Source of the DNA: an uncultured virus (IMG/VR IMGVR_UViG_3300010938_000023)
Taxonomy: Duplodnaviria > Heunggongvirae > Uroviricota > Caudoviricetes
IMG/VR virus record: IMGVR_UViG_3300010938_000023
Direction: 5' to 3' (one strand)
DNA length: 20,000 nucleotides
Of this stretch, positions 1 through 19,815 are shown one piece after another. The translations under genes were made by a program, and so were the position numbers. The notes beneath the pieces were generated by a model. It saw only the letters and a program-made list of their open reading frames with translations. It ran no database searches and had not been told where the DNA came from. The first letter of the stretch is position 1. Every line of letters starts with the position of its first letter.

Positions 1-1
1 G

Positions 2-103
2 CTGAAGAAGCCGAAGCCGGCGGGCCGCAGCACTCGCAAGCGGTCGGCCAGCCCGGCCGATGACCCGTTACTGGCCCAGCTACTGACCGGGCCGAAGCCC
101 TAG
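2..103 (+). CDS. 3' end of an upstream gene (partial): ...LKKPKPAGRSTRKRSASPADDPLLAQLLTGPKP*
   Basis: Frame is open from the window edge to TAG at 101-103, 29 nt before the next ATG and on the same strand as the cluster. Confidence 0.5.
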   Translation: MKKPKPAGRSTRKRSASPADDPLLAQLLTGPKP

Positions 104-132
104 CCGGTCCGTAGCGGGCTGAAAGGCGAGCA

Positions 133-2301
133 ATGCCTGAAGAGGAAGCCCAGAAACAGTGGCTGGCCGGGGTGGGGTCCGGCACGGACCTGAGGCCACA
201 GCTGCGGCTCAGCCCGGTCCCGTCCGATCCGTACGGGCCGCGGCTGGCCCAGCTGGAGCTACATGCAGGCCATTACTATCTCGGGCCCGGCCAACGGGCC
301 CAGGCCCAGTTGGGGCCCGGCGAGGGTGAATGGGGCCCACCTAGCTGCTACCTGTTCAGTCGGCCCGCATTGGTCAGCTTGGACAGCTACGTATCAAGTG
401 GGCCGACCAGCCCGCTGACCGTGCAACTGGTCACATTGACCAGCCAGCCGATCGGGCTCGGCCCGGTCCTGATCGAAGGGGTCCGGTACGAATCGGGCCA
501 GCCGGTCCGGGTGCCCTGGCTACAGCTGGCGCAGCTGGCCCAAACGGTCAGTGGCCAGGTCCGGGCCGAAGGGGAACGGGTAGTCCTGTACCTGCCCTAT
601 AGCGGCCCGATCCTGCCCAGTGTCTCCACGGTGTATGGGGTCCAGGTCCAGACGCTTGCAACAGGCCCCTGGGTGAGCTTAGGGACCGATCTGACCTGTG
701 ACCATAACCGTTTAACGTTCGGCCCAGCGGATGCCGCCAAGTATAGCGGGCTGACCGTTACGGTCCGATACCATATCGATCAGAGCTATGCCGTTCAGTG
801 CACGGAAGATGCCCTTGCGACCGTGCAGATGACGGTCCAGCTGCTATGGACCCAGCCCCATTCCAGCCTATGGCTGGCCATGGACGCAGACGATCCGGAG
901 CAGCTGTGGCAGTATGGTCGTGGCTTGATCAGCAATACCGGGTTTGAATCGAACCTAAACGGGTGGCAACTGGTCAGTAGCGGTGGAAGCACCGTCCAAC
1001 GGACCACAACGGGCGCGTGGGAGGGGACGGCATGTGCCCAAGTGACGGGTACGACCCAACCGGGTGATGGGCTCTATACGGTCTGTAGTGTGAGTACGGG
1101 CCAGCCCTATACGCTTTCGGCCTGGCTCTGGAGCAGTCAATCGACCGGGCTGGTTGCCGTCGAGTATGGCCGGTACCGGGCCGTATGGTCGCCGAGCCAC
1201 CAGCCGGACCGGGGTCCGGGCCGCTGGCAGCGGATCGAGCTCGCGTTCCTAGCGGACAGCAGTGTCGCGACCATTGGGTTTCGGGCCCACCGGGCCTACA
1301 GCCAGTTCCGGGTCGATAAGGTCACGGTCGGCCCGGGCCTGAGATCGGGTCCGGACCGAGCCTACCTACCGCTCGGGCTGGATATGGACCCGAGCCGGAC
1401 CGTGCTACCGGACCGGGCCGTGCTGTGCCTGGCCGAGGCCGCAGACCAGGCCAGCCTGGAGGTACAACGGATCGATCTGCAGCTGCATCCCGCGATCCCC
1501 GTCCGAGTCGTGGGTGCGAGTGAGATGGTCGGGCCCCATACGCCCGATGTGCAGGTGCTCCTGAAGCTCTGGGACCTGCATGGCAACCCGGTCTCAGGCT
1601 ATACCCAAGCGACCGTGACCTGGAACGGGTCCGGGCTGGACCCGGTCCGGACCGGGCCCGGCACGGTCCATGCCAGTAATGCCCGAGGCGAGCTCCGGTA
1701 CCGGTACGTGCCGAGCACGTCCGGGCTGGCAACGCTGATCGCGACGGCCGGGTCGGTCACACGGACCAGCTCAGTCTGGTGCCAGCCGCTGGTCGCGACC
1801 AGCGCGTTAGGCTGGTCCAACGTGGCGGGCCGTTGGGCGCATCGGGGCTGGAAGCTATTCCTGAGTCTGGACCCGGTCTGGCTGCCCTCGGGCCGGACCG
1901 GAACGGGCAGCAGCCTGTATCTGGTCCAGGCCCGTGTGACGGATATGGCGGGCTATCCGCTCACGGTCTGTACCCAGGCCAGTGCCGCGAGCTACGAGCC
2001 GATCCGGCCCTGGGTCACCTTCGAGCTCTATGGGTGCCAGCTCCGGGGCTGTACCCGGGGGCTAGGCCCGACGACGGGCCCCGCACCCGGTCGGCCCGGG
2101 AGCTATCTGCGGGCCGAAAGCTGGCTGGGCCCGTTCAGTGGCTGCCTGCTCACGGCCGGGCTCGCAACCTGCCTGATCGAGCTGGCCGATCTGGACCAGG
2201 CTTGGGTCCGAGCCTATATTGAGGGCCAGATCGCCAGCCCGGTCACACTCTATTGGTATTCCGATTGGCTGCATCTGGCGGGTGCTCAGGCGGGCCGGTA
2301 A
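133..2301 (+). CDS. Putative virion structural protein (722 aa) with a CBM4/9 (CenC)-like carbohydrate-binding domain and Big_1/Ig-like domain(s)
   Basis: LISNTGFESNLNGW...GQPYTLSAWL...WQRIELAF...FRVDKVTV (~925-1340) fits the CBM_4_9 pattern. LKLWDLHGNPVSG...SNARGELRY...SGLATLIATAG (~1555-1780) and QARVTDMAGYPL fit Big_1-type Ig domains. AAAGG upstream of ATG. Confidence 0.7.
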   Translation: MPEEEAQKQWLAGVGSGTDLRPQLRLSPVPSDPYGPRLAQLELHAGHYYLGPGQRAQAQLGPGEGEWGPPSCYLFSRPALVSLDSYVSSGPTSPLTVQLVTLTSQPIGLGPVLIEGVRYESGQPVRVPWLQLAQLAQTVSGQVRAEGERVVLYLPYSGPILPSVSTVYGVQVQTLATGPWVSLGTDLTCDHNRLTFGPADAAKYSGLTVTVRYHIDQSYAVQCTEDALATVQMTVQLLWTQPHSSLWLAMDADDPEQLWQYGRGLISNTGFESNLNGWQLVSSGGSTVQRTTTGAWEGTACAQVTGTTQPGDGLYTVCSVSTGQPYTLSAWLWSSQSTGLVAVEYGRYRAVWSPSHQPDRGPGRWQRIELAFLADSSVATIGFRAHRAYSQFRVDKVTVGPGLRSGPDRAYLPLGLDMDPSRTVLPDRAVLCLAEAADQASLEVQRIDLQLHPAIPVRVVGASEMVGPHTPDVQVLLKLWDLHGNPVSGYTQATVTWNGSGLDPVRTGPGTVHASNARGELRYRYVPSTSGLATLIATAGSVTRTSSVWCQPLVATSALGWSNVAGRWAHRGWKLFLSLDPVWLPSGRTGTGSSLYLVQARVTDMAGYPLTVCTQASAASYEPIRPWVTFELYGCQLRGCTRGLGPTTGPAPGRPGSYLRAESWLGPFSGCLLTAGLATCLIELADLDQAWVRAYIEGQIASPVTLYWYSDWLHLAGAQAGR

Positions 2302-2414: not shown

Positions 2415-3746
2415 ATGCGGATACAGTTAGGCTATAACCCTTGGTTTCAGCCGGGTCCGGGCCAGCACACGCTCTGCTGGTCAGAGCAGGTCCGGCCAGA
2501 CCAGGTCCCATTAGCGTTGGTCCAGATGCCGCCGTTACGGCCCCTGGAGCTGATCGAGCTTCAGCCGATCCGGTCGGAGTTCGGGCTGCAGGGCCTGTAC
2601 GAAAGTGCGACCGATCAGTGGTTCTTAGAGGTTCAGGACGGTTGGCACTGTGAGGTGGCCCAGACCGGTTATCAGCCAGACGATCCGCTATGGCTCCAGG
2701 GCCTATCGGCCGGTGACCTGTTATTCTATACGTTAGGCCCGGAATCGGCGGGCCAGGGCTGGTACCATCTGGTGCCCACAACGGTAGAGGGTCAACTGGT
2801 CGCAGTGCCCGGTACGGGCCAACGGTGGGTACTGGAATGGCGTGAACGGGCCCTGGTCCGTGACCCACACTGGCTCCAGGTGGACTATCCGATCCTGCAG
2901 TGGGGCGAGTACGAGCCGGTCGGGACGGTAACGGTCAGCCCCCGGGAGGTCGAGGTCCCGTTCGGGCTCAAGCCGATTGTGGAGGACGGGCAGGGCCAAC
3001 GGCTGACCCTGAGGCAGGTGGTCCAGGACCAGCTCGAGCTGGTCGAGCCGGTCGGCCCGGACCAGGTGGTCCTGGTCAGCTATGTGCGGCAGGGCCATAC
3101 TGTGATCTGGCCAGGCCACCCAAACGATGCGGACCCCGACACAGGCAATCGGCACTATCTCGCAGACCTCTGCCCATTGGCCGGGCATGTCATGGAACGG
3201 TGGGTCCCACAATCGAGCCACTACCGGCTCGAGGGCCGAAATTGGGTTGAACGGACCTGGTACCTCTTGTTGCGGCCCAGCAGCTACCATGATGTCAGTA
3301 CCAACCGGCGGGTCGCACCGGAGCCGAACTATGAGGGCGGGCTGGGCTACCATAGCCTCATGGTCCGACCGGAGACGATGCTATCCGGCCCCTTGGTCGG
3401 CGATACCTGGCCGAGCGAGCCCCATACATTGGTGCTGGCTCGGATCGTGGTCCGGACCGATGCGTGCCTCCATGCGGTCCGGCTCTGGGACGTACGGCGG
3501 CGTGGCGGTGGGCTGGATCCCGCGTGGCTCAAGGAACGTGACCTGGGCCAGATACCGGACCTGTACAGCTATTGGGACCTCGGCCCGCTCGATGGCCCGC
3601 CCTATCAGGGGCATGGCTACCTGGTGATCGAGCTGCCCACAACGCTCCTGCGGGAGGCAGGTGGCCCGTTCACGGACGAAGAGGTCCGGCAGCGGATCGC
3701 AGCCTGCCTCCCAGCGGGCGTGTTCTGGCAGGTCCAGTACCGTTAG
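2415..3746 (+). CDS. Hypothetical phage protein (443 aa), probably structural or baseplate-associated
   Basis: Long ORF. The C-terminal block DVRRRGGGL...YWDLGPLDGPPYQGHGYLVIELP...GGPFTDEEVRQRIAACLPAGV resembles, from memory, conserved C-termini in large-phage virion gene clusters. Not verified by search. Confidence 0.6.
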   Translation: MRIQLGYNPWFQPGPGQHTLCWSEQVRPDQVPLALVQMPPLRPLELIELQPIRSEFGLQGLYESATDQWFLEVQDGWHCEVAQTGYQPDDPLWLQGLSAGDLLFYTLGPESAGQGWYHLVPTTVEGQLVAVPGTGQRWVLEWRERALVRDPHWLQVDYPILQWGEYEPVGTVTVSPREVEVPFGLKPIVEDGQGQRLTLRQVVQDQLELVEPVGPDQVVLVSYVRQGHTVIWPGHPNDADPDTGNRHYLADLCPLAGHVMERWVPQSSHYRLEGRNWVERTWYLLLRPSSYHDVSTNRRVAPEPNYEGGLGYHSLMVRPETMLSGPLVGDTWPSEPHTLVLARIVVRTDACLHAVRLWDVRRRGGGLDPAWLKERDLGQIPDLYSYWDLGPLDGPPYQGHGYLVIELPTTLLREAGGPFTDEEVRQRIAACLPAGVFWQVQYR

Positions 3747-3797
3747 GTGAAACGGACCTGGGCGGTGTGGTTGAAGGGATGAGGCGCGGAATCGGCA

Positions 3798-6700
3798 ATG
3801 AAGCTAGTAGGTCCAATTGAGCTTGAAGACCGGCCGGGCAGCGGGCCGGCAGTGGAGCAGCTTCCAGTCCCGGGCCGGATCACGGGCCAGATGCAGCAAC
3901 GGTACGAACGGCAGCTGGAATCGGAGCTGCAGCGGCTGTACCGGAACACGATCCGGCTGGAGCAGACGTGCCGGCAGTACCAGAGTATCGCGCTGAGCGA
4001 GCTCGCATCGGTCCAGGACCAATTGGAACAGTTGGCCCGCCAGACGGACCAGGCCCGGTCACGAACACCCCAAGCGAGCCAGGGGTACCAGATGCGGTAC
4101 GGGCCGGACGAGTTCAGACGTGACACGGCCCGCACGTTAGCCTTAGAATCAGATGTACTGCTTTTAGTCAAGACGTTGGACCGCGAGTATGGTCCCCCTG
4201 CGCAAGCGACGGCCCGGGGCCTGGAGCCGGCAACCCTTACGGCCCGGTCCGTGGTGCGCAGCCCCGGTGGTCAGGCTCGGTGCGAGCTCAGGGTACGTGA
4301 CCGTTACCCCTTAGGGTCGGGCCTGGGCCCGTACCTGTTCGATATCTCGATGGCGTTAGATGACGATCCCAGCACCTATTTCATGGACGGGCTAGAGCTG
4401 CCGGCCGCGTTGGCGAGCCTGGCCAGCTTGGGGTCCGGCATCACGGACCCGGCCCGCAGTTGGGTTGCGTGGCTGCCACGTGAGTTAGGGCCCGAGGGGC
4501 AGGACCCGCAGCAAGCGGCCAGCTGGCTGATCAGTGTACGTTGGCAGTCCCGTCAGCAGTTCAATCGGGTCCGAGCCACGACCACCGCGTGCTCCGGACC
4601 CGCCTGGCTGGTTCGGGCCTATGCGTTGGTCGCGGAAGGCGCGATCACGAGCCTAGCGCGGACCGAGACCCAACTGACCCTAACGGACAATGCGTTGGAC
4701 CTGAGCCCCAGCCCGACCGGGCAGGACTATCTACTGGTGCTGTCCGGCAACCCGTTAGAGCCTGATCCGGTTGAGCAGATGGTGAGGCCGACCGTCGTCT
4801 CGGGCAGTACGATCCAGATCGAGCCGGGCCGATGGGGCGAGCCCTGGCCTGACCCCGTCTGGGTCGGCCAGCCGTATCGGCTGTACCGCCAACTGGAACT
4901 AGACGGCAGTACCGTGACATGGTGCGGGCCGAACCCGCAGAAGCCCCAGGGCCCGCTCGAAGCGGACCTGACCGATGGCGGCCGGACCGTACAGAGTTCC
5001 GAGCTGCTACTGGCCTGGAGCGTCTGGCACTACTGGTCGGACCGCTGGTCGGACCGGACCGGGCCCAGCTCAATCTGGTCCGAGCCGGTCCCGGGCGAAC
5101 GCGACCATCGGACCCAGCTCGAACGGGCCCAACCGTTCTGGCAGCCGGCCCGGACCAGCCTGCCCCCGGAACTGCTGGACTATCTGGAAAGCCAGCCCGG
5201 GCCCAGCCCGGACCTGGCCCTGGAGCTGGGCCCGACCGATCAGGTGCCCGAGCTGGCCGAGAGTGGCCTCCAACGGGTCTGGAACCAGGTGCTGGCCGCA
5301 CTGGCCCAGTCCGATACGGCCAGGTTCGATACGGGCATGAATACGGCCCGACAGGTCCGATACCAGTTCGGGCTATCCGAGCTCGAGCTCGAGCTCCGGA
5401 CCTGGTATCCCGTCAGCTACTGGCTCTCGGACCTGCCGGGCCCGATGGACCGGTCGATGCGCCGGCTCCAGGTCAGCCTGAGCAGTTTGGCCTGTAGCGG
5501 TGCGACCGTGCATCTGTGGCTGGTGCCTCGACCCGGCCTGAGCCCGGTCGAGTTGGAGTACGATCAGACCGATTACTGGATCGGGCCACCGGAAGCGGCC
5601 TATAGCGGGGGTGGCGCCAGTCCGACCGAACGGTGGCTGACCGTCCCGTTAATGGAACGGACCGAATGGTTCAACGGGACAGACCAGGACCGAAGCTATA
5701 GCTTCTATCTACAGTACCCGATCTATACGGGTCGGGACCTGCCCGCATGCCAGCTCAAAGGGGGCCCCTGGGGCCAGTTCTATAACCCTAACTGCCAGTC
5801 CTATAGCCTTACCGACCGGATCTATAGCCCAGCCAGCGATTTCGAGGCAACCTCAAGTACCACGGCGACCCTGATCGGGTCGATGTCGGAATGGATTACC
5901 CATGGCAGTGTCGTATTGGTGGATCAAGTAACGATCAATGGGAATACCTACTTGGCGAACCGCAACGTGGCCAGTATCGGGCGGGGGCCCTATAGCGTCT
6001 CGCTCTGTACGGTCTATGGCTGGTGTGCTCGGTTCATGCAGTCACTGGAAAATAGCCAATCGGCAATCACGTTACGGCCAGAATACGAGATATGGCCGGT
6101 AGTGACCTATTTCTCAACCATGGTAGCCACGGCAAACATCGGGGCGACCCAGTACCAGCCGATGTTTCGGGCAACGATCGCGCGGACCGAGGACGGCGAG
6201 GGCTATGTGGTGGAGTTCGGGCCGAACGGTACAGTTTCGATAGACCCACCCACGGGCTATTTTGAGGTACGGGCCTGGCAGCGGAAATGGCAGGATGGCA
6301 GTCTCCAACTGACAACGTTAGGGCTAGCCACGTTAGGCCCCGAGGAGTTGATGTGCAGCTGGGTAGATTGGGCCGTTACGTTATCAGGCCCGAATCCGGA
6401 CGAAGATCCGATCGGGCCTAATTGGCAGTTTGGTCTGTGGCGTAGCAGTAACGGCGTCACGGGCTGGGGTCCCAAGATTTCGACCTTGGCCAGCGTTATT
6501 TATGGGACTGGGCTGCAGTTTGAGGTGCTATTCCCAAGTTCACATTTATATCTGGACTATGTCGCCCAATGGGGCCGTTATCCGGGTTATCGGCCAGTGG
6601 AGGTGTCCGTCTATGGTCCGGACCTGACCTGGAGCCCAGAGAACTGGGGGATCAATTACCGGGAGGTAGGCCCACCGGAACAGGTGACGGATATCCTGAC

Positions 6701-7391
6701 CTGGAAACGGGACCGGTCGGGCCCGGAAGGTGGCTACTTCTCCGGGAAGTATCGGAACTGGCTACCGTTCCAAGGAACAGGCAGTGCAGGCATCATCCAG
6801 CTCCAGTTCCGGTACCAGCCGCAGCTAGCGGCCCTGAGCATGGTGACCCTCTATGACGGGCTGGGTGAGGGTGCAGGTGATGTCGTGATGGGGCCCGTCC
6901 TAAGCAATGAGGATTTCCAGGTGGACCTGGTATCGGGCCGGGTCTGGCTCACGGAATCGGGCCGGACGAAGCAGATGTTCGCACACGAGACCGGGGTGCT
7001 GCAGTACAATCAGATTCAGGCGACGTTCTGGGTCGAGGGCCGGGTCCGGAACTGGCAATCGAGCGGGCTAGCCAACCGGTTACCGGTCACGTATAATTGC
7101 AGTCTGCCCTGGTATGTGCCGGACGAGCTACGGGGTCCGATGATCGCGCCCCAGCTGGACCCCCTGGAGCCCGGCTATTATCCGGTCATGGAGTATCGGG
7201 CCGAGGGCCGCAAGGTCACGTTCGGGACGGACCTGACGCCCGCGGGCCCGATCGGGCCGGACCAGAAGGTCCGGGTCTCGTACCAGACCCTGGCCCTTCA
7301 GCCCCAGCTCCTGATCGGACTGGAGCTGCCACCGGGTGCAGCCCGTGCTCCGGTCGTACAGCAGGTGCAACTGGACTGGTGGGCGGAGTAG
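3798..7391 (+). CDS. Large putative virion protein (1197 aa) with N-terminal coiled coil and beta-rich body; paralog family member 1
   Basis: Long ORF. Heptad-like N-terminus (ELQRLYRNTIRLEQ...LEQLARQ), internal YQFGLSELEL motif and C-terminal APVVQQVQL, all shared in pattern with neighbours. Confidence 0.7.
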   Translation: MKLVGPIELEDRPGSGPAVEQLPVPGRITGQMQQRYERQLESELQRLYRNTIRLEQTCRQYQSIALSELASVQDQLEQLARQTDQARSRTPQASQGYQMRYGPDEFRRDTARTLALESDVLLLVKTLDREYGPPAQATARGLEPATLTARSVVRSPGGQARCELRVRDRYPLGSGLGPYLFDISMALDDDPSTYFMDGLELPAALASLASLGSGITDPARSWVAWLPRELGPEGQDPQQAASWLISVRWQSRQQFNRVRATTTACSGPAWLVRAYALVAEGAITSLARTETQLTLTDNALDLSPSPTGQDYLLVLSGNPLEPDPVEQMVRPTVVSGSTIQIEPGRWGEPWPDPVWVGQPYRLYRQLELDGSTVTWCGPNPQKPQGPLEADLTDGGRTVQSSELLLAWSVWHYWSDRWSDRTGPSSIWSEPVPGERDHRTQLERAQPFWQPARTSLPPELLDYLESQPGPSPDLALELGPTDQVPELAESGLQRVWNQVLAALAQSDTARFDTGMNTARQVRYQFGLSELELELRTWYPVSYWLSDLPGPMDRSMRRLQVSLSSLACSGATVHLWLVPRPGLSPVELEYDQTDYWIGPPEAAYSGGGASPTERWLTVPLMERTEWFNGTDQDRSYSFYLQYPIYTGRDLPACQLKGGPWGQFYNPNCQSYSLTDRIYSPASDFEATSSTTATLIGSMSEWITHGSVVLVDQVTINGNTYLANRNVASIGRGPYSVSLCTVYGWCARFMQSLENSQSAITLRPEYEIWPVVTYFSTMVATANIGATQYQPMFRATIARTEDGEGYVVEFGPNGTVSIDPPTGYFEVRAWQRKWQDGSLQLTTLGLATLGPEELMCSWVDWAVTLSGPNPDEDPIGPNWQFGLWRSSNGVTGWGPKISTLASVIYGTGLQFEVLFPSSHLYLDYVAQWGRYPGYRPVEVSVYGPDLTWSPENWGINYREVGPPEQVTDILTWKRDRSGPEGGYFSGKYRNWLPFQGTGSAGIIQLQFRYQPQLAALSMVTLYDGLGEGAGDVVMGPVLSNEDFQVDLVSGRVWLTESGRTKQMFAHETGVLQYNQIQATFWVEGRVRNWQSSGLANRLPVTYNCSLPWYVPDELRGPMIAPQLDPLEPGYYPVMEYRAEGRKVTFGTDLTPAGPIGPDQKVRVSYQTLALQPQLLIGLELPPGAARAPVVQQVQLDWWAE

Positions 7392-7426
7392 CGAGAAAAC
7401 AGATTCAATAGCAAGAAAGGACCCTC

Positions 7427-7873
7427 ATGTCAGTACTGAAATCGAACCTAGACGGGCCAGACACGGACGAGCCACGGAACGGGTCTGGCCGAGATTCGGG
7501 CCGGCCCGTGGTGGACCCCTGGTCGGTCATCCCACCGGTCCGAGTAGAGCTCACGTTCCATTGCGCGATCTTTGAGCAGTTGGGGCTACCCACGGAGCAT
7601 CTACTTTATCATGAGGCGGGCCTGCTGGTCCAGCAGCTGCTCTACCAACTGTTCCAGGGTGGCTGTCGGGCCCGGATCCTGGCACCGAACTCGGTCGGGC
7701 CGGACCTGGGCTCGGGCCCAGACCCGACTGGGGCCGGACCGGATCCCATGCCCGCGCCGGCCCGAACCCTTACGGACGCAGAACGGGCCGAGGCGGAGCA
7801 GCTGCTGCAGGCAGCCCATCTGAGGCCGGGCCTGGAACGGAGGATCCGGGCTCGACTGGGCCTGGAGAGCTGA
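7427..7873 (+). CDS. Hypothetical protein (148 aa)
   Basis: AAAGGA RBS 5 nt before ATG. Fills the gap between two large + strand genes. Helical C-terminus LTDAERAEAEQLL. Confidence 0.65.
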   Translation: MSVLKSNLDGPDTDEPRNGSGRDSGRPVVDPWSVIPPVRVELTFHCAIFEQLGLPTEHLLYHEAGLLVQQLLYQLFQGGCRARILAPNSVGPDLGSGPDPTGAGPDPMPAPARTLTDAERAEAEQLLQAAHLRPGLERRIRARLGLES

Positions 7874-7931
7874 GCCAGGCCCAGCCCACGCCACCGCGGT
7901 TCAGGAAGTTGAGAACCGGAAAGAAGGAACG

Positions 7932-9872: not shown

Positions 9873-9915
9873 GAAAGAGGGGCCTTTTTTAGGGGCGGGG
9901 AAGGGCTTAGGGGAG

Positions 9916-12084
9916 ATGCCGGACATAGTACGGTACCAAGAGCTGATCAAAGAGAGCTGGGCCTGGCGCCAGAGCTGGTGTCCGGAACTGGAGTCCGGCC
10001 CGGACAGCGCAGCCAATCCGGACCGGGTCGGTCCGGATTCGGACCTCTGGCCGGGTCGGCCGTTCCATCGGGCGCAGGCCGCGTGGACCGACCAGTCGGT
10101 GGAGCCGATGACCCGGAACGTACGGGCCGATCTGACGGTGCTACACCAGGCGGCGAACGCGTTAGAGGCTCGGGCCGAACGGCTCTGGCAGCAGGTCTAT
10201 GCGGACCGCCAAACGGTCACAGCCCACTGGCAGAGCTTGGTCCGGAGCCTGGGCCAGCCCTATCGGGAATCCGGTCGGTCTGCAGGCCATTGGCGTGCGA
10301 CCGCGCAGGACCTTGTGGCCTCGGGCTTAGCGACCATATCGAACCTGGCCCGGGCCGGTTCGGGCCTCATGCTGGAGGCAGAAGCGCATCTGGACCTGGT
10401 GGCACTGGGCCAGGTACAGCTGGTCGCGGCCCGGTACCGGGGCAGCCCGGTGTGGCAACCGATCCCGACCCAGGACGCGTTACTGGACCCAGACCCACGT
10501 ACGGGCCTGATCGTGGTCCAGGAGCCATATCGGCCGGAGAACCAGTTAGAGCTGGAGTTCCAGCTGGCCTCGCTCCATACGATCAGCTGGCTGGGTGTGG
10601 AGCTATGGGGCGATCAGGACCAGGTTGAGCTCTGGATTCGGCCGGACCTAGGCCAGGACGAGTCCGGCTGGCGGGCCTGGTCTGGCCCGGACCAGGTCCG
10701 CCGGATCCGGGTCTTGATCCGGCCCGAGCCCGGCCAGGTCTGGTATGGGCTGAAACATCTACAGCTGGGCCAGGCTGAATACCAGCGACAGGGCAGCTTG
10801 ATCTTTCCCGTACCCTGGCCGGAACAGGGCCGTTGGCAGTTCCAAGTGGACCAGCAGGTGCCCGCAGGCTGTCAGGTCCGGCACGACTATTCGTACGATT
10901 CCGGCCAGACCTGGCAGCCGATCCGGCCCGGGGAGCAGGTGGTCGTGCAGACTGAGCAGCTGGCAGTGACGGTCTGTAGCCAATATGAGGTGGCCGAACT
11001 GGAGCCCGGCAGGCGGGGCCGACCCAACCTGTGGCGTACGGTCGAGCCGGTCCTGGCCGGGTGGACGGAGGGCCAGCCTCGTCCGATCGTGTATCGGGGC
11101 GAGCAGCAGTTCTGGGCCAGCTGCTTCTATATGGAATCTGCATGGCAGCCAGGCCCGTCGGGCCAGGTCACACGAAGGGTACAGGTCGAAAGTATCGGGT
11201 CCGCCTTCTGGGACCAGCTGGGTGTCCGCAGCCGACTGGCCCGGCACGGCCTGGTCAGTCCAACGGACTATACGGCCGATCCAGTCGAACAGGCGGGCCG
11301 AGTCCTGATGTTGGACGAATCGGGCCCCATGGTGCTCCGGGTCGCACGGGGGCTCCGGGACCGGCTGGTCCGGTTAGAGACCTGGCTATGGTGTGAATGG
11401 GCCAGTAGCAGCTTATATACCGTCGAGTGCCCCTGGCCAAGTGGGACCCGGGAGGGGTACGGGCTGAGCCTGTTGGTCGAGCTGAACGGCAGCCGGATCG
11501 TACCACTGGACAGCCAAGCAAGCGACCGAGTCCAGACGATGCCCGTCAAGCTGCAAGCAGGCTGGAACAAGTTCCAAATCTATTTCTATCGGAACGTACC
11601 GCAGGATTTGGACCTGCAGCTGGCAGCCTCGAACAAGGCACATGTGTTCCTGGCCACGTTCCAATTCAACCCGGTCCGGACCGATGTCAAACAGTACCAT
11701 GGGCTGCAACGGGTCTGTGCAGAACCTCGACCGATGCAGTGGCTGCCCTACGATTGGCTAGCGGCCCGTGGCCCGGACGGGAACCCAAGCTGGAACGGCC
11801 GGTACGAGCCGTACTATAGCTGGGACGAGCAGGGTCGGCTGGTATTCGGGTATGATCCAGGCAGCACCCAGCCCGTGGATCGGCCAGGTCGGGTCCCAAT
11901 CTATGCCCAGGATGGGCAGCCCAATGAATATGAATATCTGGCTCGGTCGGCCCACCAGCTCCGGGTCGAACATTGGGTAGGGCCGAACCAGACCGGCCCG
12001 ATCCTGGTCCGGACCACCCTGATCGGGCCCGGTGACCGGAGCCCAAGCCTAGTCCAGTACGAGCTAATACCGGCCGAGCCCTAA
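9916..12084 (+). CDS. Putative virion protein (722 aa); paralog family member 3
   Basis: G-rich RBS-like sequence directly upstream. ADLTVLHQAANAL helix, WYGLKHLQL motif, YSYDSGQTW Asp-box-like motif, C-terminal SPSLVQYEL. Confidence 0.72.
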   Translation: MPDIVRYQELIKESWAWRQSWCPELESGPDSAANPDRVGPDSDLWPGRPFHRAQAAWTDQSVEPMTRNVRADLTVLHQAANALEARAERLWQQVYADRQTVTAHWQSLVRSLGQPYRESGRSAGHWRATAQDLVASGLATISNLARAGSGLMLEAEAHLDLVALGQVQLVAARYRGSPVWQPIPTQDALLDPDPRTGLIVVQEPYRPENQLELEFQLASLHTISWLGVELWGDQDQVELWIRPDLGQDESGWRAWSGPDQVRRIRVLIRPEPGQVWYGLKHLQLGQAEYQRQGSLIFPVPWPEQGRWQFQVDQQVPAGCQVRHDYSYDSGQTWQPIRPGEQVVVQTEQLAVTVCSQYEVAELEPGRRGRPNLWRTVEPVLAGWTEGQPRPIVYRGEQQFWASCFYMESAWQPGPSGQVTRRVQVESIGSAFWDQLGVRSRLARHGLVSPTDYTADPVEQAGRVLMLDESGPMVLRVARGLRDRLVRLETWLWCEWASSSLYTVECPWPSGTREGYGLSLLVELNGSRIVPLDSQASDRVQTMPVKLQAGWNKFQIYFYRNVPQDLDLQLAASNKAHVFLATFQFNPVRTDVKQYHGLQRVCAEPRPMQWLPYDWLAARGPDGNPSWNGRYEPYYSWDEQGRLVFGYDPGSTQPVDRPGRVPIYAQDGQPNEYEYLARSAHQLRVEHWVGPNQTGPILVRTTLIGPGDRSPSLVQYELIPAEP

Positions 12085-12101
12085 TACGGGCCGAGCCCTA
12101 A
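12064..12101. repeat. 17-bp tandem duplication CTAATAC(C/G)GGCCGAGCC spanning the stop codon of the 722-aa gene
   Basis: ctaataccggccgagcc (12064-12080), ctaatacgggccgagcc (12081-12097), then ctaa. One mismatch. Confidence 0.85.
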
Positions 12102-12168
12102 GCTCAGGTAAAGATCATAGGACGGGTGCCAAGACGAAAACGATTGGTAGCCAGGACAGGATAGAGCA

Positions 12169-12348
12169 ATGTGGAAATGGTGGACCGCTCACTACCTGAT
12201 GGAGAACACCCAGAGTGTGTTGATGGTCTTCGGTGAGGTTGGGAGGAAGGACGGCCCGGCGGAGGCAGGGAAGGACCAGGCCAAGGCGGTGGAGGGCCTG
12301 AAGGAGGCAGGGAAGGACCGGGCGGAGGATAAAGCTGTTTTCAAATAA
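12169..12348 (+). CDS. Possible small protein (59 aa) MWKWWTAHYLMENTQSVLMVFGEVGRKDGPAEAGKDQAKAVEGLKEAGKDRAEDKAVFK
   Basis: Read by hand: ATG 12169 to TAA 12348, with AGGA 8 nt upstream and an internal EAGKD repeat. Not in the supplied ORF track. Could be a purine-rich non-coding tract instead. Confidence 0.4.
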   Translation: MWKWWTAHYLMENTQSVLMVFGEVGRKDGPAEAGKDQAKAVEGLKEAGKDRAEDKAVFK

Positions 12349-12435
12349 CCAATACTATCATTGGCTGAAGAAAGGCAGCCTTCCAGACCTGCCAGGGTTT
12401 AAGTAGGTCTGGTAAAACCAGGTGAAATAGGACCG

Positions 12436-12684
12436 ATGCTGGATACAAGGCTCACAATTAAGATGGTCTGCATAGCGTTAGCGAGCAGCATGTCGAGTGT
12501 ACTGGCACTCATGCCGGAAACGGTCGATTGGCAGGTACGGGCGGCGTTAGCGGCCTGTGCCGCGTTCTTCGGCTCGATTGCCGCGTTCCTGGATAAGGGG
12601 GTCGCGAACCTGGAACGCAAATACAATGGGGAGCAAGCAGACCAGGAGCAGGACGAGCCGCTGTCCGAACCCATTGAACTATAG
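12436..12684 (+). CDS. Small two-TM membrane protein, holin-like (82 aa)
   Basis: Two hydrophobic segments (MVCIALASSMSSVLALM; AALAACAAFFGSIAAFL), short loop, charged C-terminal tail. No endolysin next to it. Confidence 0.55.
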   Translation: MLDTRLTIKMVCIALASSMSSVLALMPETVDWQVRAALAACAAFFGSIAAFLDKGVANLERKYNGEQADQEQDEPLSEPIEL

Positions 12685-12910
12685 GGCCAGGCAGGGGCTC
12701 AGGGCCCGGCTAGAAAAGCTATAATAACCTTAGCAAGGCCACGAGATGAGCAACCAATGGGTTTCCCACGTGACCGCATCACAGTGTTGGATCGACCGGC
12801 TTGGAAGGCAAGTTTAGTCGAAATCTGTCCTTGCTAGCCGGACAGGTATAGGACGTGAGTGGGCTGGGCACGAGCGTGGACGGGTGGCCGTGTCGGATTT
12901 AGGGTAGGCC

Positions 12911-13597
12911 ATGACGTACAGGCCACTGGTGCAGCTGGCGGACGAGTTAGCGACCCGGTTCGGGTCCGGTCAGGAGCCCTGGGCCGAGTCTGGGATACGG
13001 GCCTGGCTCGGCTGGGTCAGTGCTCATGCCCATGAGAAGACGGACCGTGAGCTGGCCTGGTTGGTCCGGTACCTGAAGTGGCGTCAGCCTCGGCAGGTCG
13101 TGGAGCTGGGAGTCCGGGACGGCGATTTTACGGGGTTCCTGGCACGGGCCTGTCAGCGGGTATCGGACCGGACCTGGGTGTTCGGGATCGATCTGTTCAG
13201 TAGTGCAGCACCGGGCTGGGAAGGCCATAGTTTGGGCTGGTGCCAGGCTCGATTACGGCAGTTCGAGCGGGCCGGGCTGATACTGGCCGAATCGGGCCAG
13301 GCCGCGACACGGTTCCAGCCCCAGACGGTCGGGCTGATCTTCGTGGATGCGGACCATCAGTATGATGCGGTCCGTAAGGATGTGCTGGCCTGGTGGTCGC
13401 GGCTAGAGCAGGGGGGCTGGCTGGTCTGTCATGATTATAGATCGGTCCCGGACGTTGCGGTCGCGTTAGGCTCGATCTTCCGGCCCGATCAGATTGGGGT
13501 CTTGGACCCGGATTCGGACTATCAGATGGCAGTCTGTATCAAGACCGGTGAACGGCTAGTTCCGGGTGAGGCGGATGCGGAAGTCTGGTACTCATAA
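12911..13597 (+). CDS. Class I SAM-dependent methyltransferase (Methyltransf_24-like)
   Basis: Motif I VVELGVRDG, then FGIDLF and LIFVDADHQYDAVRKD...LEQGGWLVCHDY, typical of this family. No DNA-methyltransferase DPPY/NPPY or PC motif seen. Confidence 0.88.
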   Translation: MTYRPLVQLADELATRFGSGQEPWAESGIRAWLGWVSAHAHEKTDRELAWLVRYLKWRQPRQVVELGVRDGDFTGFLARACQRVSDRTWVFGIDLFSSAAPGWEGHSLGWCQARLRQFERAGLILAESGQAATRFQPQTVGLIFVDADHQYDAVRKDVLAWWSRLEQGGWLVCHDYRSVPDVAVALGSIFRPDQIGVLDPDSDYQMAVCIKTGERLVPGEADAEVWYS

Positions 13598-13829
13598 CCT
13601 GGGCCGGGCCGGGCAGGTCAGTGGAACTTCAGGGCCGGAATCGGGCCCACGGGCCCGGGATGGGGGGCCAGAACGAGCCTAGAGACATTAGAGGAATGGA
13701 AGCCAGATGTNNNNNNNNNNCCTGGGCCGGGCAGGTCAGTGGAACTTCAGGGCCGGAATCGGGCCCGTGGGCCCGGGGATGGGGGGCCAGAACGAGCCTA
13801 GAGACATTAGAGGAATGGAAGCCAGATGT
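13598..13829. repeat. Near-identical ~110-bp copies (13598-13710 and 13721-13829) flanking a 10-N scaffold gap; probable assembly overlap of two alleles
   Basis: Both copies read cctgggcc...gcaggtcagtggaacttcagggccggaatcgggccc..gggcccggg(g)atggggggccagaacgagcctagagacattagaggaatggaagccagatgt, with three differences. Confidence 0.9.
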
Positions 13830-14865: not shown

Positions 14866-15864
14866 ATGGCACCTATTTCATTGACCAGCCCACAGGTGAA
14901 GTTTGTGCCCGGTACGGCCAGCCAGAGCAGCCAGCTCAACGAGCTGACCGATGGGCTCAGTCGCGACCTCGCGATCCTGCATCAGATAGCGCGTCAGCTC
15001 CAGTCGGACCTGGACCGTGCCCTCACGGCCAGCCCGGTCCAGATCGAGCTGCTCCAGGAACAGATCCTGGGTGTGAGCCCCGCGGGTTGGACCGTCAATT
15101 TCCATGGCCGAGCGAGCTTAGAGCCGGAGAACACTGCCCAGATCGATCCGTTCTATGGCCAAGCGACACTACCGATCCTGGCCTATATGGGCCAGACCCA
15201 GCTATGGTACCAAGGCCAGGTCCGAGTGCCGGATTCGGTAAATGTGACCTATCGGCTGGCCGAATCGGACCCTTATCAGACGGATCCGACGGCCCGGGCG
15301 TGCCTGACCGGGCAGAGTTGGGACTGTTGGGTCCATAAGTTGGAGCCGGTTACGGGCGAACAGCAGGTGTGGATCCGATTAGAGCTGGCTCGGACCGTGA
15401 TCAGTCCGATCAACTGTATCGAGTTTGTGCCGTTCCCGATGGGGGGGCTGACACTGGTGGGTGCGTCCTATTCCGGGGCAGGTGGTCAGGAGATCGAACT
15501 CCCGTTAGACTATCTCACGGGCTACGAGCCCGGCAGTGGGACCGTCCCCCAGGTGGGTCCGTGCCGTTGGCTGATCGAGCCGCGACCGGTCCGAACGGTG
15601 ACGTGGCATCTGACGGGTCAGGCTCGTGCCGGCCAGTTCTGGTTCGGGGCCCGGTTCGTACGGGCCGGCCGGATCGTGTTCGGCAGTCAGGCCCAGCTGG
15701 TCTGTAACGTGACGGGCAGCCAGCCCGTGACGAGCTGCCAGGTCTATGGCCGGTACAGTGGTCCAATCCAGCTGAACCAGCCGCGGACCGGTCGGGTGCA
15801 GCTGGTATTAGCCCCGATGGCGGAACTGCCCAGCCCGATCATTCAGGGGCTCCAGGCGAGCTAG
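14866..15864 (+). CDS. Putative virion protein (332 aa from ATG 14866); paralog family member 4
   Basis: Start moved from 14800 to ATG 14866 because of the AGGAAG RBS. Carries RDLAILHQIARQL, FWFGARFVRA and C-terminal SPIIQGL motifs. Confidence 0.7.
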   Translation: MAPISLTSPQVKFVPGTASQSSQLNELTDGLSRDLAILHQIARQLQSDLDRALTASPVQIELLQEQILGVSPAGWTVNFHGRASLEPENTAQIDPFYGQATLPILAYMGQTQLWYQGQVRVPDSVNVTYRLAESDPYQTDPTARACLTGQSWDCWVHKLEPVTGEQQVWIRLELARTVISPINCIEFVPFPMGGLTLVGASYSGAGGQEIELPLDYLTGYEPGSGTVPQVGPCRWLIEPRPVRTVTWHLTGQARAGQFWFGARFVRAGRIVFGSQAQLVCNVTGSQPVTSCQVYGRYSGPIQLNQPRTGRVQLVLAPMAELPSPIIQGLQAS

Positions 15865-16853
15865 GCCCAGTCCGCGAGCTCGGATCCGGGCCGGTGTGCG
15901 AGATAGCTTTGGAGCTTACTGATCGCTTGGTTCCAGAGACAGGAGACGGTCTGGAGCGAGCAGCCCAACTGGATCGCGAGCTCCGCAGGCGATTGGCTAT
16001 GGCCGTCGCGCAGTCCGAGCCGGCCGATAACGACGGTCCGTTCGGTATAGTCCAGGACCTGATCCAGAAGCTGCAGGCAGGCCCCTTCCAGGGCCTGGTT
16101 AATGACCTGGTCCGCGACCGGTACCGCCTCCAGGTCCGGCAGTTGGTCCAGCCAGCTGGCCTCCGTGGGCTCATCGGACCGGTCCGGGCCGAGCAACGGA
16201 TAGGGCTCATCCAAGGATCGGACCGACCGGAACAGGCCCGGGCCGACCCCCGGCTGGAACGGGTCAGGCCCAGCGGCCGCCTGGTCCGGCTCGGGACCTG
16301 GCTCCAGGCCCGGCTCGAGTGCCAGCTCCGGATCGCGGACGCGGTTCGGTCGGGCCCGATCCAGCCAGTGGGGCGGGATCCGAACGGGATAGCCGGTACG
16401 TGCAATGGCACGTGTGATCGCTTGATAGATCCAGGGGACGGCATAGGTCGAGAACCGGTATCCGGGCCGCCACTTCTGGATCGCACGGTGCAGCCCGAAA
16501 TAGCCTTCCTGGACCAAGTCTTCGAGCGTGAGCAGGCCCGTATCCTGGCGGTGATAGATATAGGCCGCGACCCAATAGACCAGTCGCAGGTTGAGCTGAA
16601 CGAACTGCTGATAGGCTTGGGTATCGCCCCGTTGGGCTCGCGCCAACATCTGCCGTTCCTGACGGGCCGAACAGGGGTGCGGCAGGGTCTGGTCCAAGAG
16701 CTGGACCAGCGGCGGCCGGATCATGGGGTCCGGGCTGGAGCAATCGGAGATGCGGTCGGGCCGGACCGTATGGACCGCGTGCCGGGCCAGGTCCGGCTGG
16801 ACCAAACGGGCCGCGTAGGAGAGTGCTGGCATAATAGAGAAGGACGCTCCCAT
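15861..16853 (-). CDS. RNA polymerase sigma-70 family factor, RpoD/RpoS-like; start uncertain
   Basis: Region 1.2/2: ERQMLARAQRGDTQAYQQFVQLNLRLV, EDLVQEGYFGLHRAIQKW, RFSTYAVPWIYQAITRAIARTGYPVRIP. Region 3.2: SLDEP. Region 4: ERTVVIGRLGLRDG...AELAIQLGCS...AISKL. Confidence 0.92.
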   Translation of the reverse strand: MGASFSIMPALSYAARLVQPDLARHAVHTVRPDRISDCSSPDPMIRPPLVQLLDQTLPHPCSARQERQMLARAQRGDTQAYQQFVQLNLRLVYWVAAYIYHRQDTGLLTLEDLVQEGYFGLHRAIQKWRPGYRFSTYAVPWIYQAITRAIARTGYPVRIPPHWLDRARPNRVRDPELALEPGLEPGPEPDQAAAGPDPFQPGVGPGLFRSVRSLDEPYPLLGPDRSDEPTEASWLDQLPDLEAVPVADQVINQALEGACLQLLDQVLDYTERTVVIGRLGLRDGHSQSPAELAIQLGCSLQTVSCLWNQAISKLQSYLAHRPGSELADWA

Positions 16854-16898
16854 CTAGCGAAATTTTGAGAAAGGGGCATCGTTAAGGTTTTTCAGACG

Positions 16899-17252: not shown

Positions 17253-17253
17253 G

Positions 17254-18047: not shown

Positions 18048-18071
18048 ACAGGGACAAGACAGGGACAAGAC
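18048..18071. repeat. 11-bp tandem repeat ACAGGGACAAG x2 filling the intergenic space
   Basis: Exact copies at 18048-18058 and 18059-18069, then AC. Confidence 0.85.
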
Positions 18072-18072
18072 G

Positions 18073-18429: not shown

Positions 18430-18853
18430 CTTTGGCCCGGAGCTGGTCCAGTAACCGGCCAGAGACGGTCGTAGTCAGGTTCAGGGGATAGTCCATAAGC
18501 TGGACCGGCCAGAGCGGATGGGGGGCGCGGTCCGTCAGGACCCAGATCGTCTGCTGCCGGTACAGACTATAGGTCAGTAACGGGAGGCAGGGCAGCTTGG
18601 TCCGAGCCTGGAACTGACGAGCCTGGTCTTGGACCCGCTGGAGCTTCTGCCGATTGAGCAGAAGCGCCAGCTGCTGGGTCGATTGATGGTCCAGCATCAG
18701 GATCGGCCAACGGGCCAAAGGGTCCCACGCAAGCACATCACCCTTCAGTAACGGGTCCTTATGTCGGCCCGAGCTGGGCTGGGCCCGAGCATACCAGCCA
18801 TGTCGGGCCAGAAGCTCAACCAGACGGAGCTCACAACGACGACTGAACTGCAT
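18161..18853 (-). CDS. Hjc-like Holliday junction resolvase / PD-(D/E)XK nuclease fold; the C-terminal ~90 aa may be a non-functional extension
   Basis: RRCELRLVELLARHGWYARAQPSSG...KGDVLAW...ILMLDHQST follows the Hjc pattern E..L...L...G....R...SG...D+.A...+ExKS. GGGGTG lies 9 nt before ATG 18853; alternative start TTG 18871. Confidence 0.65.
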   Translation of the reverse strand: MQFSRRCELRLVELLARHGWYARAQPSSGRHKDPLLKGDVLAWDPLARWPILMLDHQSTQQLALLLNRQKLQRVQDQARQFQARTKLPCLPLLTYSLYRQQTIWVLTDRAPHPLWPVQLMDYPLNLTTTVSGRLLDQLRAKVKRTGADQWVGEPPALVRLPCLPGLRLVPGRRLDPSSPVLYLLPFQPLLAAPAYWLEPVSIDPHSRDRSLAGSGLTMGPPHTEDSGSGP

Positions 18854-18929
18854 CGTAGAAAAACACCCCAAATTGGACCCAGGTCTGAGAGCCCCATAGA
18901 CTCTTTAATAGGACGAGCAGTAGATATGC

Positions 18930-19811
18930 GTGAAAGATTATAGCGGGGCCCAGGAGCCAGACTCTTCGATGCGTAACCGTGAGGCAGGAGCGCAGCCGGG
19001 CCGGGCCCGGAGCCGGCCCGCAGGCCCCGTGGGGCTGAGCTCCCGTGAGATATTCCAGCTGGTGGACGAGTATCGGGCCGGGTTCGAGATCGAGCAGCAG
19101 GGCCGGAAACGGACGTTCCGGCCGGTGTCAGACCCGGTCCGGTGGGCTCAATCGAAAAAAGCGGCCGAGCAGCTGCTCATCGCGTTCGAGCCGTTACTGG
19201 TGGAGTACAAGCAGTTCATTCGGACAGGTGTCCCGACCGATAACACACGGAACCTGGCCCGATACTTCGTGCCGGAACTGCTGCAGTTATCGATGGCTTC
19301 AATCGAGGATGAGGATGTGGAGGGTGAGCTGAGGCTATGTCTGCTCCAGTTCTGCTTGAAATGGGATGGGATCGTACAGAACTTCCATTGGGAAGTATCA
19401 AACTGGATCAGCCGTATGACCAAGGACATTTTCACCTGGCGTCCACCGCTCAGCAAGAGCACCACCCTCTGCGATCCCGAAAGCCAGTGCCTGCAGCAAG
19501 AGTCCGAGTGTGACTTTTCCGATAGTGTGATTGAGCAGCTGGAACGAGAACGGGTCTTGGCCTGGCTGAGGGCGCATGTGCCCTGCCAAAGGGGGTACTG
19601 GACGGAGCTATTCACAGAGGCAGAATGTGAGTATCTGAGGGTGATGCTCTCCGGGCGGGCAGAAGAGCAGTTCAGCGTACAGCAGATCAACCAATTCACG
19701 CAACAGATTGCAGACAAGGTGCGGTCCGTACTGGACAGTGAGCTGGCCTCAGCACCAGGTTCCGGTGGGCCAAGCCCAAGTGTGAGCTATCATTATCAGC
19801 CGGTATTTTAA
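18930..19811 (+). CDS. Divergent phage-type sigma-factor-like protein (293 aa); start uncertain
   Basis: EIFQLVDEYRAG...AAEQLLIAFEPLL...EDVEGELRLCLLQFCLKWD resembles sigma region 2. FTEAECEYLRVML...FSVQQI resembles the start of region 4. Confidence 0.5.
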   Translation: MKDYSGAQEPDSSMRNREAGAQPGRARSRPAGPVGLSSREIFQLVDEYRAGFEIEQQGRKRTFRPVSDPVRWAQSKKAAEQLLIAFEPLLVEYKQFIRTGVPTDNTRNLARYFVPELLQLSMASIEDEDVEGELRLCLLQFCLKWDGIVQNFHWEVSNWISRMTKDIFTWRPPLSKSTTLCDPESQCLQQESECDFSDSVIEQLERERVLAWLRAHVPCQRGYWTELFTEAECEYLRVMLSGRAEEQFSVQQINQFTQQIADKVRSVLDSELASAPGSGGPSPSVSYHYQPVF

Positions 19812-19815
19812 GGTC

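Follow-up and report, generated by a model that had tools for sequence, protein, structure and literature searches.

Over-representation of GGNCC and short-range base order in 20 kb of an uncultured phage genome

The closest described counterpart of the pattern reported here is the highly iterated palindrome (HIP) of cyanobacteria. HIP1 (GCGATCGC) and the alternate cyanobacterial HIPs are short palindromes that exceed their expectation from composition, in any reading frame and in intergenic DNA; HIP1 is thought to come from biased substitution rather than functional selection, and HIP over-representation need not imply function, according to the parts of that study drawn on here (Elhai 2015, PMC4390886). 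The subject of this analysis is the word GGNCC (N, any base) in a stretch of 20 kb (63.6% GC; hereafter the window) from the 77,714-bp source contig of an uncultured virus (IMG/VR IMGVR_UViG_3300010938_000023). A sequence-only reading had described positions 1–19260 as saturated with GGNCC and other short palindromes and had proposed a HIP1-like iterated motif. The likeness to HIP1 extends to abundance above composition irrespective of frame and to occurrence between genes; as with a HIP, GGNCC is also the most over-represented word of its length class (z-score 14.0, the next reaching 7.7). Unlike HIP1, it is a 5-mer with a free centre whose halves are enriched independently, no cognate methyltransferase was seen for it in the window, its one-off variants show no ratchet footprint, its 2.8x excess lies inside a wider block grammar, and its carrier is a phage.

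Further comparisons can be drawn with mutational and selective footprints. The Dcm/Vsr footprint of Escherichia coli consists of raised CCWGG (W, A or T) together with lowered CTWGG/CCWAG and CTAG. The window resembles it in counts set against composition (CCAG/CTGG 2.6x, CTAG 0.42x), but with codons and dinucleotides kept CTAG stands at 0.97x and CCWGG at 1.11x; the T-variants of GGNCC all lie above 1, no Vsr was found in the window, and a footprint of the Dcm/Vsr type was therefore rejected. Oligonucleotide signatures are often common to a phage and its host. As in such signatures, the bias is uniform over the window genes and identical in a relative of 95% identity; unlike the usual ones, it surpasses in size and kind everything compared here, lacks period 3 and shows a 5.5-nt oscillation of G and C.

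Restriction-site avoidance, as treated in the relevant parts of PMC3077040 and PMC4687349, finds a parallel in the scarcity of GCGC, CGCG, GTCGAC, GACGTC, GGCGCC and CCGCGG (0–0.32x). In contrast to avoidance, GGNCC, GGCC, CCGG, AGCT, GATC, CAGCTG and GAGCTC reach 1.8–5.7x, and the depletion spans non-palindromic words containing GCG or CGC and is therefore not site avoidance. Finally, YYRR and RYRY contexts (R, purine; Y, pyrimidine) differ in the bending anisotropy of their YR steps and enter nucleosome positioning models, in the part of PMC4261538 considered here. The same tetranucleotide classes are pushed apart in the window (YYRR 1.58x, RRYY 1.63x; RYRY 0.59x, YRYR 0.64x); the likeness is by word class alone, those models concerning 10-bp phasing on histones whereas the phage shows short-range order only. 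A literature search, whose word queries cannot prove absence, found no account of GGNCC over-representation in a phage or of a 5–6-nt periodicity of G/C blocks, and the pattern is apparently undescribed.

GGNCC abundance and reading frames

The window contains 561 GGNCC sites (GGACC 130, GGTCC 122, GGGCC 176, GGCCC 133), which is 2.77x the mononucleotide expectation and, at 1.99x, about twice that of an order-2 Markov model; the very high density claimed from sequence thus stands. Across positions 1–19000 there are 16–37 sites per kb, and the boundary at 19260 was well chosen, with 559 sites before it and two after it. The example region at 1321–1440 indeed holds eight sites against 1.17 expected, starting at 1330, 1335, 1348, 1353, 1386, 1397, 1410 and 1415, and the chained string placed at about 1643–1660 was located at 1644–1661. 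The longest chain, with five GGNCC separated by gaps of at most one base and three of them at exact 5-nt spacing, occupies 1638–1662, and two more triple chains begin at 5051 and 16176. Pairs of sites are preferentially 5 nt apart (39 pairs) and then 6 nt apart (27 pairs by autocorrelation); phasing at 10.5 nt was not seen in the spacing table. Every window gene carries 1.5–3.6x GGNCC over its own composition, with CGC at 0.07–0.67x.

The end of the window behaves differently. The excess stops inside a 293-aa open reading frame (ORF) at 18930–19811, of which the C-terminal two thirds (19261–19811) lack it; positions 19261–20000 have 55–56% GC and about 2.8 expected sites, and CGC stays low there. 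Positions 19261–19811 may mark a mosaic junction or belong to a gene under tighter constraint.

As controls, 80 loci of diverse prokaryotes, fetched via one unrelated gene family, were employed together with four phages of 61–64% GC. The median GGNCC ratio across all 84 was 0.73x. It ranged from 0.35x to 0.57x in the four phages (CGGNCCG 0.43–0.76x, CGC 0.84–1.21x) and from 0.27x to 0.80x in the 21 controls with at least 55% GC (0.48–0.94x against order-2 Markov; CGC 0.84–2.01x), and the maximum among the prokaryote loci was 2.09x, the higher values coming from AT-rich pieces with 2–7 sites. The window (2.77x, 1.99x against order-2 Markov, CGC 0.33x) and a metagenome contig related to it, L005 (12,566 bp, 94.8% identical across window positions 2980–13107; 2.74x, 1.94x and 0.32x), stand alone among these sequences, and GGNCC is about five times commoner in the window than in comparable DNA. 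The chain GGNCCGGNCCGGNCC occurs three times in the window (150 per Mb) and was not found at such a density among 828 sampled genomes, where the maximum was 20 copies (~5.9 per Mb); this sample comprised five single genomes, 401 of Cyanobacteriota, 301 of Chloroflexota and 121 of one acidobacterial class, with other phyla, Deinococcota among them, lying outside it. The result is the same when five unpublished genomes are set aside from their group of 301, leaving 296.

Synonymous codons were shuffled within each of 16 genes, 15 of them on the plus strand, with amino acids and codons kept; these genes and the single 12.6-kb relative L005 form the basis of the gene-based statistics. The shuffles are conservative, since the codon usage and amino-acid composition that they preserve have already been shaped by the bias. 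The genes hold 504 GGNCC against 337 after shuffling (1.50x, z 14.1) and against 388 when dinucleotides are kept as well (1.30x, z 10.4), and the extended word CGGNCCG occurs 124 times against 55 (2.25x). The two frames testable in this way, xGG/NCC and xxG/GNC/C (slashes mark codon boundaries), are enriched 1.71x and 1.66x. When codon order is shuffled instead, the glycine-proline (Gly-Pro) frame holds 91 sites against 41.8 (2.18x) and the other two frames reach 2.04x and 2.33x; all frames being enriched about twofold, the excess is not limited to Gly-Pro. Collagen-like or other Gly-Pro coding repeats were ruled out on the same count, only 91 of the 504 genic sites being in that frame, and on the spacing of 5 and then 6 nt. 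Neither a ratio near 1 after such controls nor an enrichment confined to the Gly-Pro frame, the two outcomes that the sequence-only reading had named as contrary to it, was thus found.

Enrichment is equally seen outside and opposite to the main coding direction. The unannotated DNA (2,274 nt) may be coding in part, and little of the window is truly non-coding. In this unannotated DNA 57 sites were counted, where a mononucleotide shuffle gives 16.0 (z 11) and swaps that preserve dinucleotides give 26.7 (z 6.5); the clean short spacers hold only about 12 against 3.8 in 598 nt (nine of 13 spacer rows summed). Word z-scores correlate with those of the reverse complements at 0.41–0.59 although 15 of the 16 genes lie on one strand, and the minus-strand sigma-70 family gene at 15861–16853 is equally enriched (35 sites, 3.0x); the bias is therefore not tied to the coding strand. 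The GGNCC signal acts at the DNA level, as had been claimed: all three frames, the spacers, the minus-strand sigma gene and the accessory cassette of L005 carry it.

A coding artefact, in which codon usage, amino-acid content, Gly-Pro linkers or codon pairs would produce the excess with no DNA-level force, could appeal to the 290 of 504 genic sites in frame xxG/GNC/Cxx, where the preferred codons GAC, GTC, GGC and GCC stand between a codon ending in G and one starting with C, and to CTAT, which in 79 of 98 genic cases sits at xxC/TAT as a codon-context effect. The codon-preserving shuffles nevertheless leave 1.5x (z 14), or 1.3x (z 10) with dinucleotides kept, every frame exceeds the codon-order shuffle about twofold, spacers are enriched and the minus-strand gene is no poorer in sites than the rest. 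This explanation is already largely refuted, and we regard it as scarcely tenable.

The other palindromes named by the sequence-only reading behave much as it had judged by eye: against composition CCGG stands at 1.81x, AGCT at 2.85x, GATC at 2.31x and GTAC at 1.48x, and GCGC at 0.15x. After the synonymous shuffle the first four retain only 1.14–1.32x and GCGC 0.37x, and GGACC and CGGGCC/CGGACC/GGTCCG become the top 5- and 6-mers. Seven of the 16 palindromic 4-mers exceed composition by more than 1.3x, which together with the GGNCC excess agrees with the claim of the opposite of restriction-site avoidance, and the rare ones are GC-alternating only. The trinucleotides CGC and GCG are at 0.33x and 0.40x, and depletion extends to non-palindromic words such as CGCC (0.19x) and ACGC (0.25x). 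An origin in template switching, also suggested, should favour palindromes of any composition and does not fit, the rarest words including GCGC, CGCG, GTCGAC (no copies), GACGTC (one) and GGCGCC (two). Some enriched words are strand-asymmetric, namely CTAT (104 against 45 ATAG) and AACGG (71 against 39 CCGTT), and CGTTA is enriched too; they look like codon-context effects, clearly so for CTAT.

The proteome bears the mark of the bias, in line with what had been proposed. Window proteins contain 1.2% Lys, 1.2% Met, 7.5% Gln, 3.3% Trp and 8.2% Pro, Gly-Pro dipeptides are raised 2.2x, and among Arg codons CGG is used 277 times against 32 for CGC. The DegT aminotransferase of L005 differs from 28 homologues in the same sense (Lys 2.0% against 4.4%, Gln 6.4% against 3.1%), and of its codons that touch fixed GGNCC bases 46% (of 52) agree with the family consensus, compared with 58% of the 307 others. 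The bias erases the period-3 signature of coding DNA and alters protein composition, which makes it a natural case of DNA-level pressure overriding protein preferences; gene finders, k-mer host predictors and codon models will misbehave on such genomes.

Short-range base order around GGNCC

An iterated site, rendered here as over-representation beyond that of its sub-words, was not recovered for GGNCC, which stands at 1.01–1.14x against an order-3 Markov model. Given the GNC core, the outer G and the outer C are nearly independent (odds ratio 1.14, standard error of its logarithm 0.08), and the half-words, as N(GGNC) x N(GNCC)/N(GNC), predict 542 sites against the 561 observed. The enriched units are GGNC (1.73x) and its reverse complement GNCC (1.82x), GGNCC being the overlap of both. 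A product of pairwise base correlations predicts 2.97x for GGNCC, 1.90x for CCNGG and 0.36x for CGNCG, where 2.77x, 1.80x and 0.22x are observed. Among long words none predominates; chains such as GGTCCGGACC (seven copies) are the most frequent 10-mers, and neither HIP1 (no copies) nor GGGATCCC (one copy) is iterated. Of the HIP1-like iterated motif, then, the DNA-level action in every frame is upheld and the discrete site is not.

Beneath these words lies an order of G and C over a few bases. A G is followed by C at distances 2 and 3 in excess (1.17x and 1.40x), as is a C by G (1.40x and 1.21x); recurrence of the same base at these distances is avoided (G 0.71x and 0.79x; C 0.57x and 0.68x) and is raised at distances of 5–6 (1.13–1.22x). 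L005 yields near-identical distance correlations, whereas in three control phages like bases are positively correlated at distance 3, as is normal. In the power spectrum of G minus C a broad maximum lies at period 5.5 (2.45x the mean), with period 3 at 0.83x, and the order is short-range, having vanished by about 10 nt.

Purines and pyrimidines follow the same scheme. Their lag-3 autocorrelation is −0.126, compared with +0.002 to +0.066 in the four control phages. Runs of length 1 make up 0.371 of all purine/pyrimidine runs, against 0.455–0.549 in 19 high-GC controls, a value undercut by the lowest of all 82 controls (0.340); runs of 2–3 account for 0.524, against 0.334–0.449 in all 82. Among the tetranucleotide classes RRRR (0.65x) and YYYY (0.59x) are depleted along with the alternating ones. 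Under the synonymous shuffle RRNYY (1.20x) and YYNRR (1.18x) are enriched, RRNRR, YYNYY, RYNRY and YRNYR are depleted, and RRNYY without GGNCC is still at 1.11x (z 6). The block grammar is genome-wide and strand-symmetric and replaces the usual period-3 signal.

This grammar sets purines and pyrimidines in blocks of two or three, lets G-blocks be followed by C-blocks 2–3 bases on and vice versa, brings the same base back after 5–6 bases, and avoids alternating runs, foremost GCG and CGC, as well as long homopolymer runs. At 64% GC it makes GGNC and GNCC common and GGNCC their overlap, which often has the flanks of CCGGNCCGG and forms chains with a spacing of 5 nt. That GGNCC is a by-product of this grammar acting at the DNA level, and not a discrete site, is a description to which we give roughly even chances.

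Several observations weigh against it. With the purine/pyrimidine pattern held fixed, GGNCC remains at 1.77x (z 15), GGWCC at 2.19x and CGC/GCG at about 0.5x, and by the z-scores given above GGNCC is first of the 256 XXNYY words; because it leads the gapped words and exceeds the purine/pyrimidine pattern, a GGNCC-specific component is possible. The four centre bases are enriched alike, about twofold over order-2 Markov, which resembles the degenerate specificity of a protein. Under the synonymous shuffle just nine of the 16 RRYY words show enrichment, and GTAC, an alternating word, shows it too. Abundant GGNCC sites would themselves create pairwise correlations, the final 740 nt without excess are not predicted by a purely genome-wide force, and the description covers 20 kb of the 77,714-bp contig.

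A HIP-like ratchet would take up these points. Here a GGNCC methyltransferase, encoded by phage or host and acting together with methyl-directed or Vsr-type mismatch repair, would convert near-misses into sites, and the site would build up as an epiphenomenon, the course proposed for HIP1 and its alternates in cyanobacteria. The rank of GGNCC among gapped words and its four equivalent centres would fit, as would the synonymous differences described below, where gains of GGNCC are above and losses below random. Alternate HIPs (rCCGGy, GCsGC) occur where the matching methyltransferase is present, in the portion of Elhai 2015 (PMC4390886) used here. The best NCBIfam model of the window's sigma factor is of the cyanobacterial RpoD type, at a score far under cut-off (98.8 against 384.5 bits). 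Set against this are the near-independence of the half-sites and the want of an order-3 Markov excess. T-containing one-off variants, which a ratchet should deplete, are mildly enriched (GGNCT 1.28x, AGNCC 1.16x, GGNTC 1.22x, GANCC 1.23x). The enrichment is 2.8x and HIP1 excesses are far larger, and GCG/CGC depletion, YYNRR enrichment and the 5.5-nt oscillation would be left unexplained.

The search for the enzymes themselves, which the sequence-only reading had called for, found neither a C5 or N4/N6 DNA methyltransferase nor a Vsr, whether in the window or in the L005 insert of 2.5 kb, by Pfam, PHROGs, NCBIfam and PADLOC profiles, the scans covering the larger ORFs and not setting every ORF against every library. 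The proposed origin in methylation-coupled repair accordingly receives no support from the window, where T-variants are at 1.16–1.28x, and we judge a ratchet quite unlikely.

The window's sole methyltransferase is a Methyltransf_24 protein at 12911–13597 on the plus strand (Pfam PF13578, 4.8e-19). It matches PHROG 2675, labelled 'DNA methyltransferase' (1.5e-16), and weakly PADLOC mad2 (3e-4) and RMNT_CmcI (the rhamnosyl O-methyltransferase/CmcI family). DPPY and PCQ-type motifs characterize DNA methyltransferases; the protein has a DxDH stretch and neither of these. In L005 its gene follows genes for DUF5672, DegT aminotransferase and GNAT proteins. On account of these neighbours, the weak CmcI match and the missing DPPY or PCQ-type motif, a role on DNA is doubted: the protein is probably not a DNA methyltransferase and looks like a sugar or small-molecule O-methyltransferase belonging to a sugar-modification cassette.

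Substitutions relative to L005 and candidate forces

Alignment of the window with L005 covered 9,960 bases with 521 mismatches, the direction of the differences being unpolarised. In five genes 401 codons differ, 262 by a single synonymous change, 107 by a single non-synonymous change and 32 by multiple changes. As a null model, the same kinds of synonymous change were placed on random synonymous sites in 1000 permutations. Differences creating GGNCC number 26 against 12.2 +/- 3.2 expected, and those destroying it 15 against 31.4 +/- 4.9, with none of the 1000 permutations as extreme in either case; GGNCC is thus maintained and formed anew at synonymous sites, in a comparison of the kind that the sequence-only reading had suggested. 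CGC/GCG words were lost 36 times (15.2 expected) and gained 36 times (50.1 expected), and RYRY/YRYR words were lost 59 times (32.0) and gained 34 times (51.0). The four fixed bases of GGNCC carry 33 differences, 0.72 of the 45.9 that codon position and base would predict, with ratios of 1.08 at the free centre, 1.5–1.9 at the immediate flanks and 1.00 for the control word CCNGG. A steady state is held by a DNA-level force, and with these data selection and biased mutation or repair cannot be separated.

We infer that this force acts on the phage's own DNA duplex. GG.CC block alternation is A-philic and rigid, and alternating purine-pyrimidine runs are Z-prone and flexible. A constraint on duplex conformation would favour the former and disfavour the latter, and could be imposed either by weak selection, given a large population of a thermophilic phage, or by conformation-dependent damage and repair. 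Such a mechanism is offered tentatively, as the less probable side of the question; from the literature, the differing bending anisotropy of YYRR and RYRY contexts (PMC4261538) lends it support. If conformation-dependent repair bias or selection on duplex mechanics were true, it would be a new force shaping genome composition.

The same grammar might instead be inherited, made by the polymerase, repair or defence of a hot-spring host. Phages commonly resemble their hosts in k-mer usage, and the three metagenome runs that bear relatives of the window are all from hot springs or microbial mats. The accessory genes of L005 (DegT, DUF5672 and GNAT) carry the signature too (GGNCC 1.9–2.7x, CGC 0.22–0.43x), which would fit a donor of like signature or complete amelioration. 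The signature was not found in the 828 sampled genomes (three phyla) or the 80 loci, which is weak evidence against this origin. We consider an inherited host signature unlikely, although somewhat less so than the ratchet.

Selection for folded single strands at high temperature, be they messenger RNA or replication and packaging intermediates, was assessed on 59 windows of 120 nt from eight genes, with 12 shuffles. At 37 C the native windows reach −47.98 kcal/mol and their synonymous shuffles −45.60 (z −4.9); at 60 C they reach −26.60 and −25.03 (z −3.7), a shift in the direction such selection would take. The gain of about 5% is, however, no more than added palindromes would bring as a side effect and is read as such; GCGC and CGCG, which form the most stable G/C stacks, are avoided, and spacers and the antisense of genes show the bias just as strongly. 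This explanation appears very unlikely.

To return to a force on the duplex, a bolder form of it would be a genome-wide GG/CC block code with a period of about 5.5 nt that tunes the state of the DNA or presents dense targets for a single modifying enzyme, a speculation that we rate no higher than the ratchet. Tuning might then mean, for example, easy compaction into a B-to-A-like form or protection from heat and desiccation in the capsid; with one methylated C per strand in each GGNCC, about 9% of cytosines (1,122 of 12,724) would be marked. It would also be a DNA-level adaptation strong enough to lower lysine to 1.2% of the proteome. Whatever the force, phages are expected to shed short palindromes cut by restriction enzymes, yet this phage abounds in such words and nonetheless persists across several hot-spring samples; its DNA is therefore protected in an unseen way or its hosts lack these common enzymes.

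Gene content, relatives and intergenic elements

Profile scans with Pfam, PHROGs and NCBIfam indicate a phage-like content. A 722-aa protein with a CBM_4_9 domain is followed by several large proteins without family, one of which matches a PHROG virion structural protein; further genes encode the Methyltransf_24 protein, a HIRAN protein, the minus-strand sigma-70 family protein and a GroES homologue. In a protein-cluster search the sigma factor fell into mixed viral and bacterial clusters, and three proteins compared by sequence with the PDB had no match there. A plus-strand ORF of 324 aa at 15894–16868 overlaps the sigma gene almost completely; since only the minus-strand product has family matches, it is probably an artefact of stop-poor, high-GC DNA. 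No transfer RNA and no Rfam family was found in the window.

The lineage of the window appears isolated by sequence comparison. A megablast search with the window found no match among 50,697 phage records, and an exact 45-mer of it was absent from the viral and metagenome contigs searched. The 1197-aa protein had no match by tblastn against phages and none in viral contigs, and the 646-aa protein had two distant tblastn matches among phages (23–26% identity). A word-based homologue search with the latter returned only itself; a full HMMER search of 1.84 billion representatives gave relatives at only about 30% identity, with 165 matches at E <=0.001 and one, the query itself, at <=1e-30. The distant relative L090 (34.5% GC) has GGNCC at 0.93x and is too distant to inform, and P0123 was not found among viral contigs. 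Nearer relatives come from metagenomes: contigs of two hot-spring runs span 30 of 30 window bins, mostly at 90–99% likeness, and those of a third, microbial-mat run span 20 of 30. With near relatives in three runs, the sequence is therefore not an assembly oddity. A run of 10 N lies at 13711–13720.

By alignment, L005 carries three extra genes at its positions 9694–12293, between window positions 12795 and 12786 and upstream of the Methyltransf_24 gene. They encode DUF5672, a DegT sugar aminotransferase (5e-81) and GNAT proteins, and the insert is a variable sugar-modification cassette that may act on the virion, the host surface or DNA. Homologues of the DegT protein are only 50–57% identical and come from many phyla.

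The largest stretch without a confident gene lies at 12085–12910, with 10 GGNCC sites (2.1x) and CGC at 0.51x, and a small gene on either strand may be present in it. A hairpin element of about 54 nt at 12363–12416 occupies the gap between structural and accessory genes. Further contigs from all three runs carry it between dissimilar, AT-richer flanks (summed depth 656 over five contigs in run X3), and three changes in the recurring copies give a perfect stem of 11 bp; for the copy in the window the folding energy is −24.1 kcal/mol (z −1.9 relative to shuffles). It had no Rfam match and no exact match in the genome contigs searched, and it resembles either a small repeat or mobile element or a terminator used in common. 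Partial matches of 32–43 nt, unlike in their flanks and of 80% likeness, were as frequent as chance would give and were not read as spacers of clustered regularly interspaced short palindromic repeats (CRISPR).

After the last gene, positions 19826–19900 hold a G/T-rich tract (about 70 nt) in which runs of G are numerous. The motif TTTTCAAATA, which may be a shared promoter or terminator element, lies just beyond this tract and again in the intergenic region near 12.3 kb (12335–12350). Direct repeats occur at about 12071–12100 and 12255–12320, and relatives in the runs skip 47, 66 and 153 nt at joints 12084–12132, 12281–12348 and 13597–13751; the spacers therefore vary in length within the population.

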